Source of the DNA: a virus | Lineage: Duplodnaviria > Heunggongvirae > Uroviricota > Caudoviricetes | Length of the DNA stretch: 10,252 nucleotides | Reading direction: 5' to 3' (one strand) | Virus record (IMG/VR): IMGVR_UViG_2690316285_000005 | Shown: one piece after another, positions 2,700-10,252 of the stretch | Numbering within the stretch: position 1 is the first letter of the stretch | Layout: every line of letters starts with the position of its first letter | Position numbers and translations under genes: made by a program | Notes under the pieces: model-generated | Told to the model about the DNA's origin: nothing | Seen by the model: only the letters and a program-made list of their open reading frames with translations | Database searches by the model: none

Positions 2700-2712
2700 A
2701 TTGGAGATGAAA

Positions 2713-3012
2713 ATGAATTTAAACGAATTGAAGAAAAAACTACAACCAGAATTAAAACCACATGAAGTAATGGGTGAAATCATCTTTATTCATCGTCCAA
2801 ATGGTCAGGATTTCCAGAAATGCACTGATGTGGCTAAAACTCTAATCCTATGTGTAAAAGATGAAAATGGTGATCCTATCTTCGCAGAAGAAGATATTGA
2901 TGGACGAATTAATGTTAACTCTATTGATTTTGTAATCCAGAATGAAATTTACTCAGCAATTATTGCTTTAATCAATACTGCGAAACCTGTAGATGAAGTA
3001 GAAAAAAAGTAA
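2713..3012 (+). CDS. Tail assembly chaperone (lambda G-like), the zero-frame product
   Basis: Small acidic ORF directly upstream of the tape measure gene. GGAG at 2703-2706 is 6 nt upstream of the ATG at 2713, which I prefer over the TTG at 2701 or the ATG at 2707. It ends at TAA 3010-3012 immediately after the slippery heptamer. Confidence 0.75.
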   Translation: MNLNELKKKLQPELKPHEVMGEIIFIHRPNGQDFQKCTDVAKTLILCVKDENGDPIFAEEDIDGRINVNSIDFVIQNEIYSAIIALINTAKPVDEVEKK

Positions 3013-3407
3013 GAGGTGATATCGAATTAAAGTACTTTTGTAAGATGGTTAACAAAAGAGGCTTATCACCTGAAGAATACTTTAGTTTAGATCCTGATGT
3101 ACTCAATATGCTTATGATCTACGATACTTTTATAGAACCATCCGGTACGCAGATTGAAATGATGAAACATGCGTACCAGTGTTACTACACCACTATCAGT
3201 AATGGCAACCTAACACCAGAAGCAAGGAAAAGTATCAAGGTACAGGATTTTGATTTTCTTGATGTGCTTAGTGATAGTACTAAGAGTACTTCAGAGAAAG
3301 CTGAAGAAAGAAAATTAAAAACTAAAGAGGCTCAATCCAATGATATTAAATCTATAGGGGAGTTAATTAAATCTCAGGTATTAGGAAAGAAAAAGAATGG
3401 CAAATAA
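2713..3407 (+). CDS. Tail assembly chaperone frameshift fusion (lambda GT-like), produced by a -1 shift at 3003-3009
   Basis: The upstream frame (start 2713, residue 1 mod 3) and the downstream ORF (3045-3407, residue 0 mod 3) are related by a -1 shift. The predicted junction reads ...VDEVEKK / VRGDIELKYFCKMVNKRGLSPEEY..., giving a product of about 231 aa. Its end overlaps the tape measure start (3397) by 11 nt. Confidence 0.65.
3003..3009 (+). promoter_or_regulatory. Slippery heptamer A_AAA_AAG for -1 programmed ribosomal frameshifting
   Basis: In the chaperone frame the codons are gaa-aaa-aag-taa. The heptamer A AAA AAG (3003-3009) is the classic dnaX-type shift site. The -1 frame is open from 2997 (a stop lies at 2994-2996) through 3407, and the downstream ORF has no SD before its first ATG at 3045. 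Confidence 0.7.
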
Positions 3408-5610
3408 TAATAGAATACGTGTAGATATTACGGGTGATTCTTCCGGTTTACAGCGTGCTTTAAGGTCTGGTACTGAATCATTAGAGGAATTTGGTAGTAC
3501 TGCTGGTGGCATTGTTGAAGAGTTCACAGGCCGAATAACTGGTATGGCTGGCGGGTTCGGTACTGCTATGACCGGGATCGCGGGTGCTGCGGCTATTGGT
3601 ATTGGTGGCCTGGCAGCATTAGTAGAATCATCACGTGAATATGTGCGTGAAATGAACCAGATCAGTAAGAGTACCGGATTGTCCGTGGTTCAGTTACAAC
3701 AGCTATCAGCGGCGTTTAGTGGCCTCGGTCTTGAGATTGATAAGTTTGGTGATTTCAACAAGGATACCTTGGATAAGCTCGGTGATGCTTTTCGTGCTGG
3801 CGGTGGTGTATCCGATGATCTTAAAGAATATGGACTCAACCTACAGGACTATAACAAGTACTTAAAACAGGCTGATGGTGGTATGCAGGCTGTGATCCAC
3901 ACCTTTTACGCCATGCGTGATGCAGGTAAATCACAGAGTGAAATAGTTAACGTAATGGAAACGTTAGCCAGTGACTCAAGCCACATGATTAGTACTCTTC
4001 AGCAGTTCAATAATGAGGCTCAAGCTACAGCCTATATCCAGTCACAAAATGCTGAAGTAACTAATGATGCTGCTGAAAAATATGCTGAATTCGATAAAAA
4101 CCTTGGGAAACTTACTACCAGCATTAAAGGTACTATTGCTGATGGCCTATCACCTTTAGTTAATGCCATGAACAGTGTCTATGATGCTGCAAATCAAAAA
4201 CCTCACGAGGCAGGTTTGTTTGAAGATCTGAATGAACGTATTAAAACTTCCAAGGGTTCTCTACAGGATATGTTGGATATCTGGGAAAAATTACGTACAG
4301 CAGGGGCATTAAACTACCAGGGTGCAGCACTCAATACTGGCATCATGGATGATAAGGGCAACAAGGGTAATGAGTTCGCTCAGGCTAAGGCACGTTTAGA
4401 AGAACTGGCAAACAACCTAAAGTCCGATGTTGCGGTTGCTACCGCTCCTACTGGCGGATGGGTTGATCAGGCAAAAGAAGCTGAAGATGCAGCGAAGAAG
4501 TTAGAACAACAACGTAAACAGGCAGAAGCGGCACAAAAGGCGGCAGATGCAAAACGCCTACAGGCTCAACGTAATCTGGAAGCTGCTCTTGCTCAAGTTG
4601 GGGAAGATGGTTTTCAGGTACGTCTACAGCAGTTCGACAGACAACAAAAGGCACTTCTTAAAACCATCACCGATAGTGCTCAAGTACTCGGTATCAATCC
4701 TGATGAAATGCTAAAGAACGCTACTGCATATGGTGCTAAACAACGTACTGATTTACTGAATTCAATGGTTGGTTATCAAGATCCTAATCAGGGTCTGAAA
4801 GATACCAATGCTCTTATTGGTTCCGGTCTACTCAATGACAATCAGAAGGGGTATCTGGCACAGCAACAGAATCAGCGTATCAATGGTGGTAATCCATTAG
4901 CCTATAACGATACCGATCAGAAGTTGAAAGATAACGCTGATGCTATGAATGCTGAACTTCAGCAGAATGAGTTGTTGCTGAAAGGCCATGAGGACTATGA
5001 GAAACGTAAAGCTGAGATCACGGCAAAGTACAATGCACAGGCCATCCAAATCAGTAACCAGAATGCACAGGATCAGTTAAGTATCTTCTCAAGTACTGCA
5101 CAGTCACTATCACAGGGCATGGTTGATGCGTTTGGGGAAAGTAGTGGGGCTGCACAAGCTGCATTTACCCTAAGTAAGAGCATAAGCATTGCACAGACAG
5201 TACTTTCAATTCAGTCAGCATTGGCCCAAGCACTCGCTACCCCTTGGCCAGCTTCATTGGCAAACTATGCACAAGTACTTTCACTTGGTATGTCGATTAT
5301 TAGTACTGCAAAGGGTGCTGCTGCTGGTCAGTTCCATGGCGGGGTAGATGAACTACCAGCAAGTTATGACAACAAATCATTTGTACTTAAGCAGGGCGAG
5401 AGAGTGGTGCAGCCTGAAGCGAATAAGAAATTAACAGCATTCTTGGATAAACAAGAAGGTGGAAGTACTTCAGGTGATATTACCGTTAACGCACCATTGA
5501 TCATCCAGGGTGATGTAGCTGATGATGACAAGAAATTTAATGAGATGCTTAAGAAACACGCCAATAGTGTTTCTCAAGCTGTGAGAAGTAGTCAAAAACG
5601 TAATACATAA
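3397..5610 (+). CDS. Tail tape measure protein
   Basis: 737-aa ORF immediately after the G/GT chaperone pair. It has a Gly/Ala-rich hydrophobic segment near the N-terminus (GMAGGFGTAMTGIAGAAAIGIGGLAAL), long Ala/Gln/Lys-rich, probably coiled-coil, stretches (EQQRKQAEAAQKAADAKRLQAQRNLEAALAQ) and a hydrophobic C-terminal region. This is the typical tape measure architecture. Confidence 0.85.
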   Translation: MANNNRIRVDITGDSSGLQRALRSGTESLEEFGSTAGGIVEEFTGRITGMAGGFGTAMTGIAGAAAIGIGGLAALVESSREYVREMNQISKSTGLSVVQLQQLSAAFSGLGLEIDKFGDFNKDTLDKLGDAFRAGGGVSDDLKEYGLNLQDYNKYLKQADGGMQAVIHTFYAMRDAGKSQSEIVNVMETLASDSSHMISTLQQFNNEAQATAYIQSQNAEVTNDAAEKYAEFDKNLGKLTTSIKGTIADGLSPLVNAMNSVYDAANQKPHEAGLFEDLNERIKTSKGSLQDMLDIWEKLRTAGALNYQGAALNTGIMDDKGNKGNEFAQAKARLEELANNLKSDVAVATAPTGGWVDQAKEAEDAAKKLEQQRKQAEAAQKAADAKRLQAQRNLEAALAQVGEDGFQVRLQQFDRQQKALLKTITDSAQVLGINPDEMLKNATAYGAKQRTDLLNSMVGYQDPNQGLKDTNALIGSGLLNDNQKGYLAQQQNQRINGGNPLAYNDTDQKLKDNADAMNAELQQNELLLKGHEDYEKRKAEITAKYNAQAIQISNQNAQDQLSIFSSTAQSLSQGMVDAFGESSGAAQAAFTLSKSISIAQTVLSIQSALAQALATPWPASLANYAQVLSLGMSIISTAKGAAAGQFHGGVDELPASYDNKSFVLKQGERVVQPEANKKLTAFLDKQEGGSTSGDITVNAPLIIQGDVADDDKKFNEMLKKHANSVSQAVRSSQKRNT

Positions 5611-5620
5611 GAAAGCCCAG

Positions 5621-6193
5621 TTAGGGATTTTCCGTGTGATAAGACAAATATTGTGAAAGAGAAGATGAAAGGGTATAGAGATTGTAATACTCTTCCCGCA
5701 ATAATTTAACTTTAGGTGGTGAGTATTTAATATTGTATGCAAGCTGTGTTGAAAGAGTACGTAATCTCGATAATGAATAATAACTCTTTACGATGGCATC
5801 TACTTCTTTTTTTGGGAGTGATGCTAATTTTTCTAATTGGGAATAATATACATCATCATGCAAATAAGAAACGGCAGTTGCTACTCTTTTAATAGCTTCT
5901 GTATCTTCAGTTGGAAGAGGAATACATATTTCATATGTGCCTAACACCTGAGACTCATCGCCACCAGTAGCAAGAGCTAAAAGGTTATTGTTGATTTCGC
6001 TCAATAAGATTACACGCATCTTAAAAACATCATCTGAACTTTCTTTCCATTTATCATATGCGTTATAGCCTATTTGGCCTGCAAATAACAACATAGCAAC
6101 GATGACGGATGCAGCCTGCCAATCAAGCCTGTTAAAAAAAATACGAATCGAGGTTTTTAAATAAATAAAGAAAGAAGATATTCGAGGTAACAA
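5621..6193 (-). CDS. Hypothetical protein, probably membrane-anchored; moron-like accessory gene encoded antisense to the tail operon
   Basis: The only long ORF on either strand in the 584-bp gap between the tape measure stop (5610) and the next tail gene (6195), and it fills the gap exactly. Read from the TTG at 6193 (an AGGA lies about 8 nt upstream on the minus strand) it gives 190 aa with a hydrophobic segment WQAASVIVAMLLFAGQIGYNAY near residues 25-46. The region is visibly more AT-rich than the flanking genes. The start codon is uncertain: the first in-frame ATG corresponds to 6094-6092 but would cut the hydrophobic segment. No known domain was recognised. Confidence 0.5.
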   Translation of the reverse strand: MLPRISSFFIYLKTSIRIFFNRLDWQAASVIVAMLLFAGQIGYNAYDKWKESSDDVFKMRVILLSEINNNLLALATGGDESQVLGTYEICIPLPTEDTEAIKRVATAVSYLHDDVYYSQLEKLASLPKKEVDAIVKSYYSLSRLRTLSTQLAYNIKYSPPKVKLLREEYYNLYTLSSSLSQYLSYHTENP

Positions 6194-6194
6194 A

Positions 6195-6752
6195 ATGGCA
6201 TCCTTTTCAAATCAAATAAAAGTAACGAACTTTCAAATTAAAAGTACTGAACCGATCTATTCTAATCAAACATGGACAGGTCAACGTATCATGAGAAGTA
6301 CTGGAATTCAATACTATCAAATTCAGTTCACCCTTAATTTTAATCCTGCATCACTAAATGAAGTGAATAGCTTTTTAGCTCAATATGCACAGGGCAAACC
6401 TTTCACTATGTCATTGGGGCTTGCAGGTACATATTACGGTAAACAGACTGGTGCAGTAACCGCTACTGCTCTCACTAAACCGGGTAATATGGTTGTACCT
6501 ATCAGTACTAACACATTAGCTGTGGGTGAGTGGGTACAGTTTTCCAATCACAATAAGCTATATCGAATCGTAGAACGTACCAGTACTTCAATTACTATTT
6601 TCCCTGCTCTACAAAATACAGTACAGGCAAGTGAAGCACTCAAATATAACAATCTCATGATCGAGGCTGTATTAGATCCAGACAATGATTATTCATTGCC
6701 TATTGGGAACATCATGAATATTACATTGAAAGCAACGGAGAATATCATCTAA
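6195..6752 (+). CDS. Minor tail protein, distal tail (lambda gpM-like) candidate
   Basis: 185-aa ORF, first gene after the tape measure gene in the + direction, with a GAGGT RBS 6 nt upstream of the ATG. The segment YYQIQFTLNFNPASLNEVNSFLAQYAQGKPF resembles the lambda gpM family pattern (..YSVTLS...LESFLEEHGG.KSF..) as I recall it. The stop overlaps the next start (TAATG). Confidence 0.5.
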   Translation: MASFSNQIKVTNFQIKSTEPIYSNQTWTGQRIMRSTGIQYYQIQFTLNFNPASLNEVNSFLAQYAQGKPFTMSLGLAGTYYGKQTGAVTATALTKPGNMVVPISTNTLAVGEWVQFSNHNKLYRIVERTSTSITIFPALQNTVQASEALKYNNLMIEAVLDPDNDYSLPIGNIMNITLKATENII

Positions 6753-7779: not shown

Positions 7780-10228
7780 GAGTTTAGGGGGCTTTTTTGG
7801 AGCCATAATTACGGCAGTTGTCGTCGCGGCTGCTGTGTACTTTTCAGGAGGTACAGCATTAGCAGCAATAGGTTGGGGTGCAGCAGCCGGATCTTTGTCA
7901 TTAGTTGCAAGTTCTATGTTAGGTCAAATCGGGGTTTCTGGATACGGTGATGTAGCAGACTCACTAAGTAGAAGTACTTCACCAACTACTGGATTACCCG
8001 TTATATACGGTGGAGAACTACCACATAAAAATGGTGTATCAGGCGGTTCCTTCATCCTAACCGGAAGCATAGTAGCCTGGTACAACGTACCAAATTCTGA
8101 TTCTCAGTACTTATTCTCAGAACAGGCTGTAGCATATGCTGGTGTAGAAAAGCATATCGAGCAAATCTATATTGATAATGAGCCAGTACTTGCAGTACCG
8201 ATTACAGCAGAGGGTGTAGTACCTAAAGAAAGTATTGCAGCGAAGTACCAGAACTATTTGCAATTAGAAGTACGATTTGGTGGTGACTATACGAGTACTA
8301 AAACTCTTGCTGCAAAATATGCTGGTTCGAAATGGACAAATAAATTTCTTGGTAAGGGTATTGTTAGTATCAGTACCGTTATCTTAAAAACTCAAGATTC
8401 ATTAGAAAATAATATTCTTGTTAATGATCAATTCGCTTTAACTGTAGAAATGAAAGGGCAGGTGATTTATGATTTTGTTGATGGTACTTATAAAGCAAGT
8501 AGTAACCCTCCTTCAATTATCTATGATTACTTAACAAATTCAATCTATGGTATGGGTATTGATCCATCATTGATTAATACCGATACGTTTGCAGAAACCG
8601 CAGCATATTGTGATGCTTTTGAATATTATGCTAATGGTGCTATCAGTTATCAAAAAACCTATAAAGATAATATTGAAAATATCTGTCAGTCATTTGGCGG
8701 CATCATGTATGTACATGCCGGACAAATCTGTATTACCACAGACCGCAAATCGGTATCCGTAGCCTCATTTGATGAGCGTAACATGGTAGGGGCGGTACAG
8801 GTTTCTACTTCTGGCGGTACTGACTACTTCAACGTAGTCGATTGCAAGTTTACTAACCCTGAATCGATGTACACCACTGACGTAGTACGTATCCCTTCCG
8901 ATATCACTACGGATGAAGCAGTACAGCATGATGGACAGGTCATAGCATTATCACGCGATTACTCATGGTCATATGATCAAGAGGTGATTGCAAAAATGGC
9001 TAACGTTGATGTACTCAAGGCTAAGTATGCCCTGCGTACTATCAGCTTCACCACAAGTGAAGGTTGGGATCTCGAAGTATGGGATGCGATCAATGTCAGC
9101 AATGAAGAACTCGCTATCTCAGGCAAATTTAAAGTACTCAATAAAGATATCAGCACCGATCAAGAGAACGTTGGCTATGTAACCATCACGGCAGTAGAAG
9201 CACCTGATGCAATGTATGATGGTATTGATCCGGGTATCTGGTCGCCTGGTGGGGTAATTAACTTCCCTGAACTACAGGTACTACCGCCAACGAACCTACA
9301 GGCAGTACGTAAGGGGAATACTACTTCTGGTTCAATCGTGGATCTTACCTGGGATGCTTCACCAGATCCGTATCTGCGTGGGTACTATGTTTACTACCGT
9401 CTTAACGGTTCCAGTACCTGGACGTATGCGGGGCAGACTGGCGTACAGAAGCTTGATTATGAATTATTTGGATTGTCTGATACTGCAAGCTACGACTTTT
9501 CGGTAGAGGCTTACAACAACTTAGGGCTGGTATCCAAGAAGCTTTCCCTAACTGGCATTGTTCCAACATTCAACTTTGCACTACCTGCGGTAACGCGTGT
9601 AGTACTGACAAATAAAACAGAATCAGCGTATGTAACTGACTCACCAGATTTCAATATTGCCTGGGATTCACAAAAAGATATCAGAGTGAATAACCGATCA
9701 TTTAGTGAGTACTTCAAGTATTACGTTATTAAAATCTATGACGGTACTAAATTAGTAGATACATTCTATACGCAAAGTAATGCCTTTAATTTCACTCTTG
9801 AAATGAACCGTCTGAAAGTACGTAAGCCTACCATTGGTATTATCGCACAGGGATTTAATGATGGTACATATTCAGAGGAAGTGAAAATAACCGTAGAGAA
9901 TAAACAGTGTGGTTTAGTAGAGGATGTTAGCTTTACGGGTGGTTTTGGTAATTTGTTTGCTTCATGGACTAAATCTACTGAACGTGATTATGCAGGTGCG
10001 ATTATCAGTATTGTTAATGGTACTAATACACGTATATTCACCAGTTATGCACCTGAATTTGATTCAATACCAAACATCACTGATGGTGAGTATAAGGTTA
10101 AGATGGGATTCTTTGATGTGTTTGGTACTGATGATATTCAATATTGTCCAGAACAAACAATCAGTATCAACTCCAAGTACCAGTTTACCGAAGATGATGC
10201 AGAGGCAATTAACGGGATTCTGAGGTAG
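7772..10228 (+). CDS. Central tail fiber / host specificity protein (lambda gpJ-like) with an N-terminal domain resembling the C-terminal part of lambda gpI
   Basis: 818-aa ORF. N-terminus GGFFGAIITAVVVAAAVYFSGGTALAAIGWGAAAG...LPVIYGGE resembles the Gly/Ala-rich hydrophobic C-terminal region of lambda tail assembly protein I. Segment SNPPSIIYDYLTNSIYGMGID...AAYCD (about 8500-8640) matches the conserved gpJ-family motif (NNMAWCLWDMLTHPRYGMG...QYCD). A fibronectin type III-like module (LTWDASPDPYLRGYYVYYRLNGSSTWTYAG...YDFSVEAYNNLGL) lies at about 9296-9550. Confidence 0.8.
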   Translation: MGKSLGGFFGAIITAVVVAAAVYFSGGTALAAIGWGAAAGSLSLVASSMLGQIGVSGYGDVADSLSRSTSPTTGLPVIYGGELPHKNGVSGGSFILTGSIVAWYNVPNSDSQYLFSEQAVAYAGVEKHIEQIYIDNEPVLAVPITAEGVVPKESIAAKYQNYLQLEVRFGGDYTSTKTLAAKYAGSKWTNKFLGKGIVSISTVILKTQDSLENNILVNDQFALTVEMKGQVIYDFVDGTYKASSNPPSIIYDYLTNSIYGMGIDPSLINTDTFAETAAYCDAFEYYANGAISYQKTYKDNIENICQSFGGIMYVHAGQICITTDRKSVSVASFDERNMVGAVQVSTSGGTDYFNVVDCKFTNPESMYTTDVVRIPSDITTDEAVQHDGQVIALSRDYSWSYDQEVIAKMANVDVLKAKYALRTISFTTSEGWDLEVWDAINVSNEELAISGKFKVLNKDISTDQENVGYVTITAVEAPDAMYDGIDPGIWSPGGVINFPELQVLPPTNLQAVRKGNTTSGSIVDLTWDASPDPYLRGYYVYYRLNGSSTWTYAGQTGVQKLDYELFGLSDTASYDFSVEAYNNLGLVSKKLSLTGIVPTFNFALPAVTRVVLTNKTESAYVTDSPDFNIAWDSQKDIRVNNRSFSEYFKYYVIKIYDGTKLVDTFYTQSNAFNFTLEMNRLKVRKPTIGIIAQGFNDGTYSEEVKITVENKQCGLVEDVSFTGGFGNLFASWTKSTERDYAGAIISIVNGTNTRIFTSYAPEFDSIPNITDGEYKVKMGFFDVFGTDDIQYCPEQTISINSKYQFTEDDAEAINGILR

Positions 10229-10252
10229 CCTGAGTTTAACGGACACTCCTTC

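Follow-up and report, generated by a model that had tools for sequence, protein, structure and literature searches.

What is a single gene, encoded antisense to all its neighbours, doing in the middle of a phage tail operon? The question is raised by a 10,252-nucleotide stretch of viral DNA (IMG/VR record IMGVR_UViG_2690316285_000005, Caudoviricetes), which is referred to below, at its full length, as the window. It holds a siphophage tail module on the plus strand, and between the genes of the tape measure protein (TMP) and the distal tail protein (Dit) lies one minus-strand open reading frame, hereafter the ORF. An original prediction, made from the letters alone, had described it as a horizontally acquired moron encoding a membrane-anchored protein. 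The analysis presented here finds that the ORF is a real coding gene under purifying selection and that the TMP/Dit junction is a dedicated antisense cargo slot in one lineage of enterobacterial siphophage prophages; the ORF is no core tail gene. Its product is very probably a non-structural accessory membrane protein. By analogy with known systems, the ORF may be a non-structural prophage moron which most likely acts in superinfection exclusion at the inner membrane, a reading with about an even chance of being right.

A coding gene in a slot of variable content

The layout of the locus was borne out. The frame encodes 190 residues from a TTG start, fills the TMP-Dit interval, and converges with the TMP ORF, which ends at 5610, across a gap of 10 nucleotides (nt). 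Its start codon stands back to back with that of Dit, whose ATG at 6195 is 1 nt away. The accompanying claim that the interval has no plus-strand ORF holds for any substantial frame, but a single one of 51 residues is found at 5737-5892. The start is supported by a Shine-Dalgarno-like AAGGA upstream and by other alleles, which have ATG (in the loci L008, L009 and L011) or GTG (L040) at the same position. The AAGGA is conserved across all aligned loci, though this region is also constrained by the coding of Dit.

The coding nature of the ORF follows from the existence of homologues and from the ratio of non-synonymous to synonymous substitution rates (dN/dS), which is 0.09-0.13 in pairwise comparisons among the window, Citrobacter and Enterobacter copies and 0.14-0.22 to more distant copies. 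Compared with the Citrobacter copy, 59 synonymous and 28 non-synonymous changes are present in the ORF. An open frame of 190 codons is expected by chance, at this GC content, with a probability of about 6e-7 per start and about 0.013 over the whole window. The alternatives of a chance frame, or of a TMP-Dit spacer with a regulatory, non-coding role, find support in nothing but the non-canonical start codon, TTG, and the absence of any promoter that could be recognised. They are opposed by the frame being open in about 15 diverged loci, by a confident structure prediction, by remote homologues and by an Rfam search of the window that gave no match; codon-level conservation refutes them, and their probability is negligible.

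The loci recruited by similarity to the ORF itself all have it antisense between TMP and Dit, and such a sample is biased. The junctions were hence recruited by the neighbouring tail genes, using Dit in genomes and the 207-residue tail protein in IMG/VR, which provided 24 related TMP/Dit junctions. Eight of them hold a member of the ORF family (45-99% identity), seven hold unrelated cargo, and the remaining nine are empty, with only 58-129 nt between TMP and Dit and a hairpin inside this spacer. The ORF thus occurs in part of these phages while close relatives lack it at this site, as is characteristic of morons in the definition made for HK97 and HK022 (PMC3594210), and it is not a conserved structural gene. 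The comparison of this junction in related phages, suggested along with the original prediction, has accordingly revealed a variable hotspot with different cargo.

All occupants of the slot, which fall into three cargo classes, are antisense and start 1-63 nt from the Dit ATG. Besides the ORF family, one class consists of multi-pass membrane proteins of 208-215 residues with the Pfam domain DUF6216 (E 1e-23), whose alleles are 57-93% identical and which match neither PADLOC nor PHROG families. A 215-residue ORF in L013 had been considered a divergent member of the ORF family, but it is only 13% identical and belongs to this class. The other class comprises soluble proteins of 260-262 residues with the Pfam domain DUF726, assigned to phrog_35015 (unknown function) and carrying a GHSLG serine-hydrolase-like motif; PADLOC gave no match for them either.

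The content of the slot changes quickly. The AT-richness of the ORF had been taken as a sign of its acquisition, which it is not, because the neighbouring genes are equally AT-rich: the GC fraction is 0.344 for the ORF, 0.369 for Dit, 0.346 for the gene of the 207-residue tail protein, and 0.317 and 0.342 for the chaperone genes. The TMP gene alone differs (0.439), and a distinct base composition, another mark of morons, is not seen in the ORF. Horizontal exchange is shown directly by an allele with sharp breakpoints. In the near-identical phage L009, the proteins of the tail module are almost the same as in the window (TMP 98.9%, the J-like tip protein 99%, fibre 99.8% and Dit 95.7% identical), and the ORF is 61% identical. 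The DNA alignment shows 96-100% identity up to about position 5616, about 60% over 5617-6194, and 98% from the Dit ATG onward, so the breakpoints coincide with the TMP stop and the Dit start. A change of cargo is found in L027, where TMP and Dit are 96% identical to those of the window, yet the slot holds DUF6216 cargo. The reverse situation is represented by L005 and L006, which carry a near-identical ORF (synonymous divergence, dS, 0.19) beside diverged TMP genes (dS 1.41). At least four allele groups of the ORF family, 42-62% identical to one another, can be distinguished. Relative to L005, the non-synonymous divergence (dN) of the ORF is 0.36, about threefold that of the neighbouring tail genes (0.08-0.16).

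The ORF also persists where the surrounding tail genes decay. In three Citrobacter loci (L001-L003) and one Enterobacter locus (L004), it sits in prophage remnants in which only the last 230-370 nt of TMP remain and Dit is broken by frameshifts and stops; the tail gene after Dit is truncated in L001 and missing from L004. The flanking remnants of Dit and the 207-residue tail protein gene have accumulated premature stops as well as gap openings, of which L001 has 7 in 821 nt and L004 has 7 in 412 nt. Over its 573 nt, the ORF is free of insertions and deletions in both. At the rates of the flanks, the Poisson probability of such an intact ORF is about 0.007 for L001 and 6e-5 for L004. A similar picture emerges in Shigella sonnei, where the exact ORF protein is present on hundreds of assemblies. 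In the window, which belongs to a Shigella prophage, the J-like tail-tip gene is truncated by the insertion sequence (IS) element IS600 and encodes 818 residues, compared with 1067-1100 in relatives. The complete S. sonnei chromosomes L050-L052 have IS elements inside J, at positions that differ between them, which indicates that the prophage is probably defective across this species, and the ORF is intact. Since the ORF outlives the decayed tail genes, a role in the virion or its assembly is strongly disfavoured and a benefit to the cell is favoured.

The predicted protein and its distant relatives

The original prediction of one N-terminal hydrophobic helix is correct as to the single helix, but the helix does not lie at the extreme N-terminus: it spans residues 25-46, behind a basic segment of 24 residues. 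The membrane anchor is supported by three predictive lines, namely a hydropathy peak of 1.5 at residues 27-45, the positive-inside rule, which predicts an N-in/C-out topology in 12 of 12 family members, and an AlphaFold2 (AF2) model with a predicted local distance difference test score (pLDDT) of 81. The model contains one transmembrane (TM) helix followed by a four-helix bundle, and the protein is predicted to be a bitopic inner-membrane protein with this bundle in the periplasm. The TM helix has the lowest column entropy in the family, with 11 of its 22 positions invariant. The composition is rich in Leu, Ser and Tyr, as first noticed (26, 21 and 16 of 190 residues). The only cysteine is C90 and there is no lipobox, which separates the protein from receptor-blocking lipoproteins of the Cor and Llp type and from Bor.

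No recognisable motif had been reported for the product, and database searches agree: the protein found no match in Pfam (E up to 0.1), NCBIfam or the protein sequences of the PDB, and none in PADLOC. Comparison of the AF2 model with known folds returned a generic helical bundle, with no informative match or functional signal.

Homologues were found exclusively in enterobacteria in a search of 5.8 billion proteins, with 100% identity in Shigella sonnei, 87% in Citrobacter cronae, 84% in Enterobacter and 46-63% for further alleles. An exhaustive profile search of 1.84 billion representatives yielded only 11 proteins. The sole library match of the ORF is phrog_3829 (hmmscan E 1e-5), in which residues 21-143 align with profile positions 8-134 of 197. 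Aligning the ORF family with a core member of phrog_3829 gives an HHalign probability of 98% (E 1.7e-13), and the phrog_3829 profile scores its core members at 7e-122 and the intermediate proteins P0015 and P0018 at 3e-23 and 2e-18. These profile comparisons place the ORF as a remote member in phrog_3829, a family likewise uncharacterised. The likeness to such proteins as VUD38026.1 of P2_4B2 or CAH0786506.1 of AC1 lies in the architecture, where a helical domain comes after the TM motif WxAxSVIxAM; their genes are variable inserts too, between two tail operons. They differ from the ORF in being only about 20-30% identical and in lying on the sense strand of a myophage.

Within P2-like phages, the core members are flanked by G, a gene for fibre assembly, and the sheath gene FI, that is, they lie in the Z-region, which in P2 holds the antisense exclusion gene fun(Z) and in which P2-like phages carry horizontally acquired genes (PMC3091744). 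The family is common in E. coli P2-like prophages (more than 1000 contigs), where its members are named 'lysogenic conversion protein' in NCBI and UniRef. Literature searches for phrog_3829, its accession numbers and this name found nothing relevant.

Other distant relatives, at 19-27% identity, are integrase-adjacent cargo; one sits alone and another is carried by an IncFII plasmid. A TIR gene which matches PADLOC PDC-S66 (E 2e-112) and the ThsB models stands 38 nt upstream of P0015, and a further relative is found about 200 nt downstream of a DUF4238-Pers gene, with methyl-directed restriction enzymes of types II and IV nearby. P0019 (L020), P0021 and P0016 have no such TIR gene beside them, and the relatives P0015, P0019 and P0021 themselves have no PADLOC match. 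For the intermediates P0010 and P0011, no genomic context was found in viral or metagenome contigs.

Surroundings of the slot

The order of genes on the plus strand of the window is fibre (with an S74 chaperone domain), tail tube, two chaperone ORFs, TMP, Dit, the 207-residue tail protein, DUF6950 and the J-like tip protein. Searches of phage databases with the window sequence (megablast, tblastn) gave no match. The coordinates of the ORF, its borders and the compared cargos are collected in Table 1.

Table 1. Features of the window and of compared loci (positions without an L prefix refer to the window)
Feature	Position	Strand	Remarks
Coding sequence, 190-residue accessory protein	5621-6193	-	TTG start 6193-6191, TAA stop 5623-5621; homologues 44-100% identical, dN/dS 0.09-0.22
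Exchangeable cassette	5617-6194		Identity to near-identical phage L009 drops only within these bounds
Residues 1-24, basic amphipathic N-terminal segment (K+R 4, D+E 1)	6122-6193	-	Predicted cytoplasmic; among the more variable parts
Residues 25-46, single TM helix WQAASVIVAMLLFAGQIGYNAY	6056-6121	-	Most conserved part of the family; motif common to distant relatives
Residues 47-188, stalk helix and up-down helical bundle	5630-6055	-	Predicted periplasmic; loop 153-158 and last helix most variable
Shine-Dalgarno-like AAGGA	6201-6205	-	7 nt upstream of TTG start; inside Dit coding sequence of the other strand
TMP gene	3397-5610	+	phrog_13674, E 5e-86; left border of slot
Dit gene	6195-6752	+	phrog_1302, E 8e-17; right border of slot
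Weak hairpin between convergent TMP and ORF ends	5604-5638		Includes ORF stop codon; -9.4 kcal/mol; z -2.2 on +, z -0.8 on -
Hairpin after TMP stop	L012:3925-3985; L013:3315-3370; L014:3930-3985		Counterpart of window 5604-5638
DUF6216 cargo	L013:3336-3983; L027:2781-3407; L032:2788-3426; L036:2782-3408	-	TMP/Dit slot
DUF726 cargo	L033:2592-3380; L037:2592-3380; L043:2593-3375	-	TMP/Dit slot
Distant relatives after integrase, beside TIR or DUF4238-Pers gene	L016:7090-8657; L019:6973-8546		TIR gene matches PADLOC PDC-S66
IS600 terminus TGAGGTAGCCTGAGTTTAACGGACACTCCTTC	10222-10252		Supplies stop codon of J-like tail-tip gene

The weak hairpin between the TMP and ORF ends has stronger, G+C-rich equivalents in relatives. 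These stand immediately behind the TMP stop codon, with -13 to -17 kcal/mol and a z of -2.3 to -5.2, in empty-slot and cargo-bearing phages alike. Such a terminator-like hairpin in the middle of a tail operon would imply that transcription reads through or is antiterminated, or that the distal tail genes have a promoter of their own.

Several further observations concern the tail module. A tail-fibre gene with a C-terminal Peptidase_S74 intramolecular chaperone (150-2129) precedes the tail tube gene (2188-2661), a gene order unusual among siphophage tail modules. From its first ATG in the window this fibre gene encodes 659 residues, versus 808-883 in S. sonnei chromosomes. The leftmost positions, 1-41, match, at 97.6%, a part of E. 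coli plasmids that has no annotation and lies some 200 nt downstream of blaTEM-1. The chaperone-like ORFs at 2701-3012 and 3045-3407 are separate, with a 32-nt gap and no obvious overlapping G/GT frameshift pair, and the second one shares an 11-nt overlap with the TMP start. About 5 kb past the tail-tip gene, related prophages have a phage lysozyme gene, antisense like the ORF (L005:3334-3783, L007:3424-3873, L008:3210-3659 and L050:609-1058). It adjoins a SegE/GIY-YIG homing-endonuclease-like gene, and near that end of the prophages an AbiGi gene is present in L005 and a DUF3800 gene in L011.

Candidate roles of the antisense gene

The closest precedent for the locus is gp15 of phage HK97, the first described moron, which is adjacent to the TMP gene and whose inner-membrane product blocks genome injection, with the specificity set by the tail of the incoming phage (PMC3594210; Cumby et al. 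2012). Like gp15, the ORF is a non-essential insert in the tail operon that adjoins TMP, is missing from related phages and encodes a small, here predicted, inner-membrane protein. Gp15 has been proposed to act on the incoming tail and genome injection rather than on an outer-membrane receptor, and by analogy the same step may be suggested for the ORF. The two genes differ in their details: gp15 has 62 residues, belongs to the YebO family and lies on the sense strand, with the chaperone genes on one side and TMP on the other, and has annotated terminators, while the ORF has 190 residues, is antisense between TMP and Dit, and possesses a large predicted helical-bundle ectodomain. Homology to gp15/YebO was rejected (HHalign probability 0.6%, no Pfam match at E up to 0.1). 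The P2 protein Fun(Z), a lysogenic conversion and exclusion protein of the Z-region which blocks T5, offers a second parallel: its gene is likewise antisense and non-essential between two late tail operons, in the slot that phrog_3829 occupies in other P2-like phages. It is no homologue, however, having 528 residues and an hmmsearch score of -0.7.

The slot as a whole can be compared with the defence hotspots of P2-like phages and P4 satellites, in which cargo is swapped and remains intact in defective elements with pseudogene mobility genes (Rousset et al. 2022, PMC9122126; a 2026 NAR study, PMC13586616). A fixed site between core genes, rapidly swapped unrelated cargo and its preservation in defective elements are shared features. 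The TMP/Dit slot differs in phage lineage and position, being in a siphophage, and in holding a single gene that is always antisense. It is also often empty (9/24), whereas empty P4 hotspots are reported to be extremely rare (PMC13586616/PMC9122126). None of the three TMP/Dit cargo families is present in current defence catalogues. A link to the validated TIR+TM system of AC1 ('2TM + 1TM + TIR', PMC9122126) was rejected. That system belongs to a cos-adjacent hotspot, and its TM proteins have no match to the hidden Markov model of the ORF family (E above 0.2); no TIR gene is present in the window or in any tail-slot locus.

Small membrane proteins that exclude superinfecting phages are known from other resident phages as well. 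The lactococcal Sie2009 and the T4 protein Sp are type II membrane proteins with one N-terminal anchor and an extracytoplasmic domain, and they block DNA entry. Their architecture is like the one predicted here, and the ORF has no match to the Pfam Sie or Imm families.

Superinfection exclusion is favoured for several reasons. The ORF encodes a lone small bitopic protein without an enzymatic domain; its presumed ectodomain diversifies fast, and phages that are otherwise near-identical have exchanged its alleles; relatives are found in the slot of an exclusion gene and in defence neighbourhoods; and, in addition to the precedent of gp15, inner-membrane defence proteins can engage TMPs during injection (PMC13190303). 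The following course of events may be envisaged. The protein would be dispensable for building the virion and kept for the benefit that it gives to the lysogen, being presumably expressed from the resident prophage, to which its intact state in decayed prophages lends indirect support. Its short basic N-terminus would stay in the cytoplasm, with the helix of residues 25-46 crossing the membrane and the four-helix bundle exposed in the periplasm. From the periplasmic face of the inner membrane, the bundle could interfere with genome injection by incoming phages, and the candidate targets are the incoming tail-tip or tape-measure complex, or those inner-membrane proteins which phages use as a channel for entry. 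The range of excluded phages would then depend on how the alleles of the bundle have diversified. An anti-phage role by any mechanism appears slightly favoured, and a block of injection specifically is possible but on balance somewhat doubtful.

A number of results weigh against superinfection exclusion. The ORF finds no family of PADLOC-DB v2.0.0 at E up to 1, it lacks Pfam and NCBIfam matches, and its generic bundle carries no functional signal; the hydropathy of the TM helix is moderate. No coupling of ORF allele to TMP allele was seen, and a rule by which phages with the resident's own TMP type are excluded is unsupported, because the ORF allele does not follow the TMP allele. The neighbours of the distant relatives provide guilt by association at low identity, and the TIR gene is not constant among them. 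The name 'lysogenic conversion protein' is backed by no NCBIfam model and no paper that could be found. The expression of the ORF is also less clear than its coding capacity. As the cargo begins so close to the Dit ATG, any promoter of it must lie in the 5′ part of Dit, and a scan for promoters and terminators found no sigma-70 consensus promoter and no canonical terminator; only weak -35/-10 candidates are visible by eye inside Dit. A synonymous-site test for a promoter in this region detected 5′ conservation, which is present in empty loci too.

The rival explanations share part of this evidence. The ORF protein could be an abortive-infection or membrane effector, which senses the infection or is activated by a partner, oligomerises, and depolarises or permeabilises the inner membrane, so that the infected cell is killed or arrested while entry itself is not blocked. 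Single-pass TM proteins are common effectors in defence systems (PMC9122126), P0015 lies directly behind a TIR gene, and the hotspot behaviour and retention in decayed prophages fit this explanation equally well. The ORF is alone, however, in the window and in all eight family-bearing junctions, with no gene for a sensor or partner; the TIR gene is not found beside P0019, P0021 and P0016, and the AC1 TM proteins are not homologous. The protein, moreover, has a single TM helix of moderate hydrophobicity and lacks any known domain for pore formation or enzymatic activity. Such an effector is unlikely. Equally improbable is a lysogenic-conversion factor apart from phage defence, an envelope protein that raises host fitness through, for example, stress tolerance, bacteriocin or tailocin resistance, colonisation, or the exclusion of conjugative DNA. 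It would agree with the ORF being kept in decayed prophages and throughout S. sonnei, with the label of the P2-type relatives, which is a name without a curated model or paper, and with the presence of relatives on the IncFII plasmid and in integrative elements with conjugative-pilus genes; lambda lom and bor set a precedent as morons of the tail region whose roles do not concern phages (PMC3594210). Rapid allele diversification and cassette swapping between near-identical phages are nevertheless seen more typically in an arms race with other mobile elements; unknown cargos of other families use the slot too, relatives are found among known defence genes, and the ORF protein is neither a lipoprotein nor an outer-membrane barrel, unlike Bor and Lom.

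The remaining explanation, in which the ORF serves the phage's own cycle as an i-spanin-like protein, a regulator of lysis, or a helper of tail assembly or genome injection, is very improbable. The architecture does resemble Rz-type i-spanins, with an N-terminal TM helix, a predicted helical periplasmic domain and one conserved cysteine (C90), and the ORF lies inside the tail module, with the antisense lysozyme gene about 5 kb away in relatives. The lack of the ORF from 9/24 related phages, its replacement by unrelated proteins in 7/24, and its orientation antisense to the late operon speak against it, as do the intact ORF after tail-gene decay and the relatives in non-phage islands and on a plasmid. 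No ORF with a lipobox, as expected of an o-spanin partner, was found on the strand of the ORF within window positions 5401-6400, about 200 nt on either side. The presence/absence data and the retention in dead prophages largely exclude a role of this kind.

The best reading is that the ORF behaves like a moron of the HK97 gp15 kind, yet outside that family; it is not surprising in principle, and it is a clean, testable candidate. A wider proposal, tentative and rather doubtful, is that the ORF family, phrog_3829 and the island relatives form a new single-gene anti-phage exclusion family of Enterobacteriaceae, in which the bundle would recognise the injection machinery with an allele-specific range. 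In that case the TMP/Dit junction would be a hotspot for single defence genes, so far undescribed, and its other cargos, DUF6216 and DUF726, would be new defence genes as well.

Which phages can infect clinical Enterobacteriaceae, Shigella sonnei among them, is shaped by prophage genes that block superinfection; few such genes are known and fewer understood. At this locus, a clonable single-gene candidate with clear bounds is accompanied by natural variation: its alleles form at least four groups, empty slots can serve as controls, and phages that are otherwise near-identical carry two alternative cargos. Such natural variants allow one to ask what the slot is for and what sets the specificity of exclusion. 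The locus also gives a first functional hypothesis for phrog_3829, a family that has so far carried only an unsupported name.

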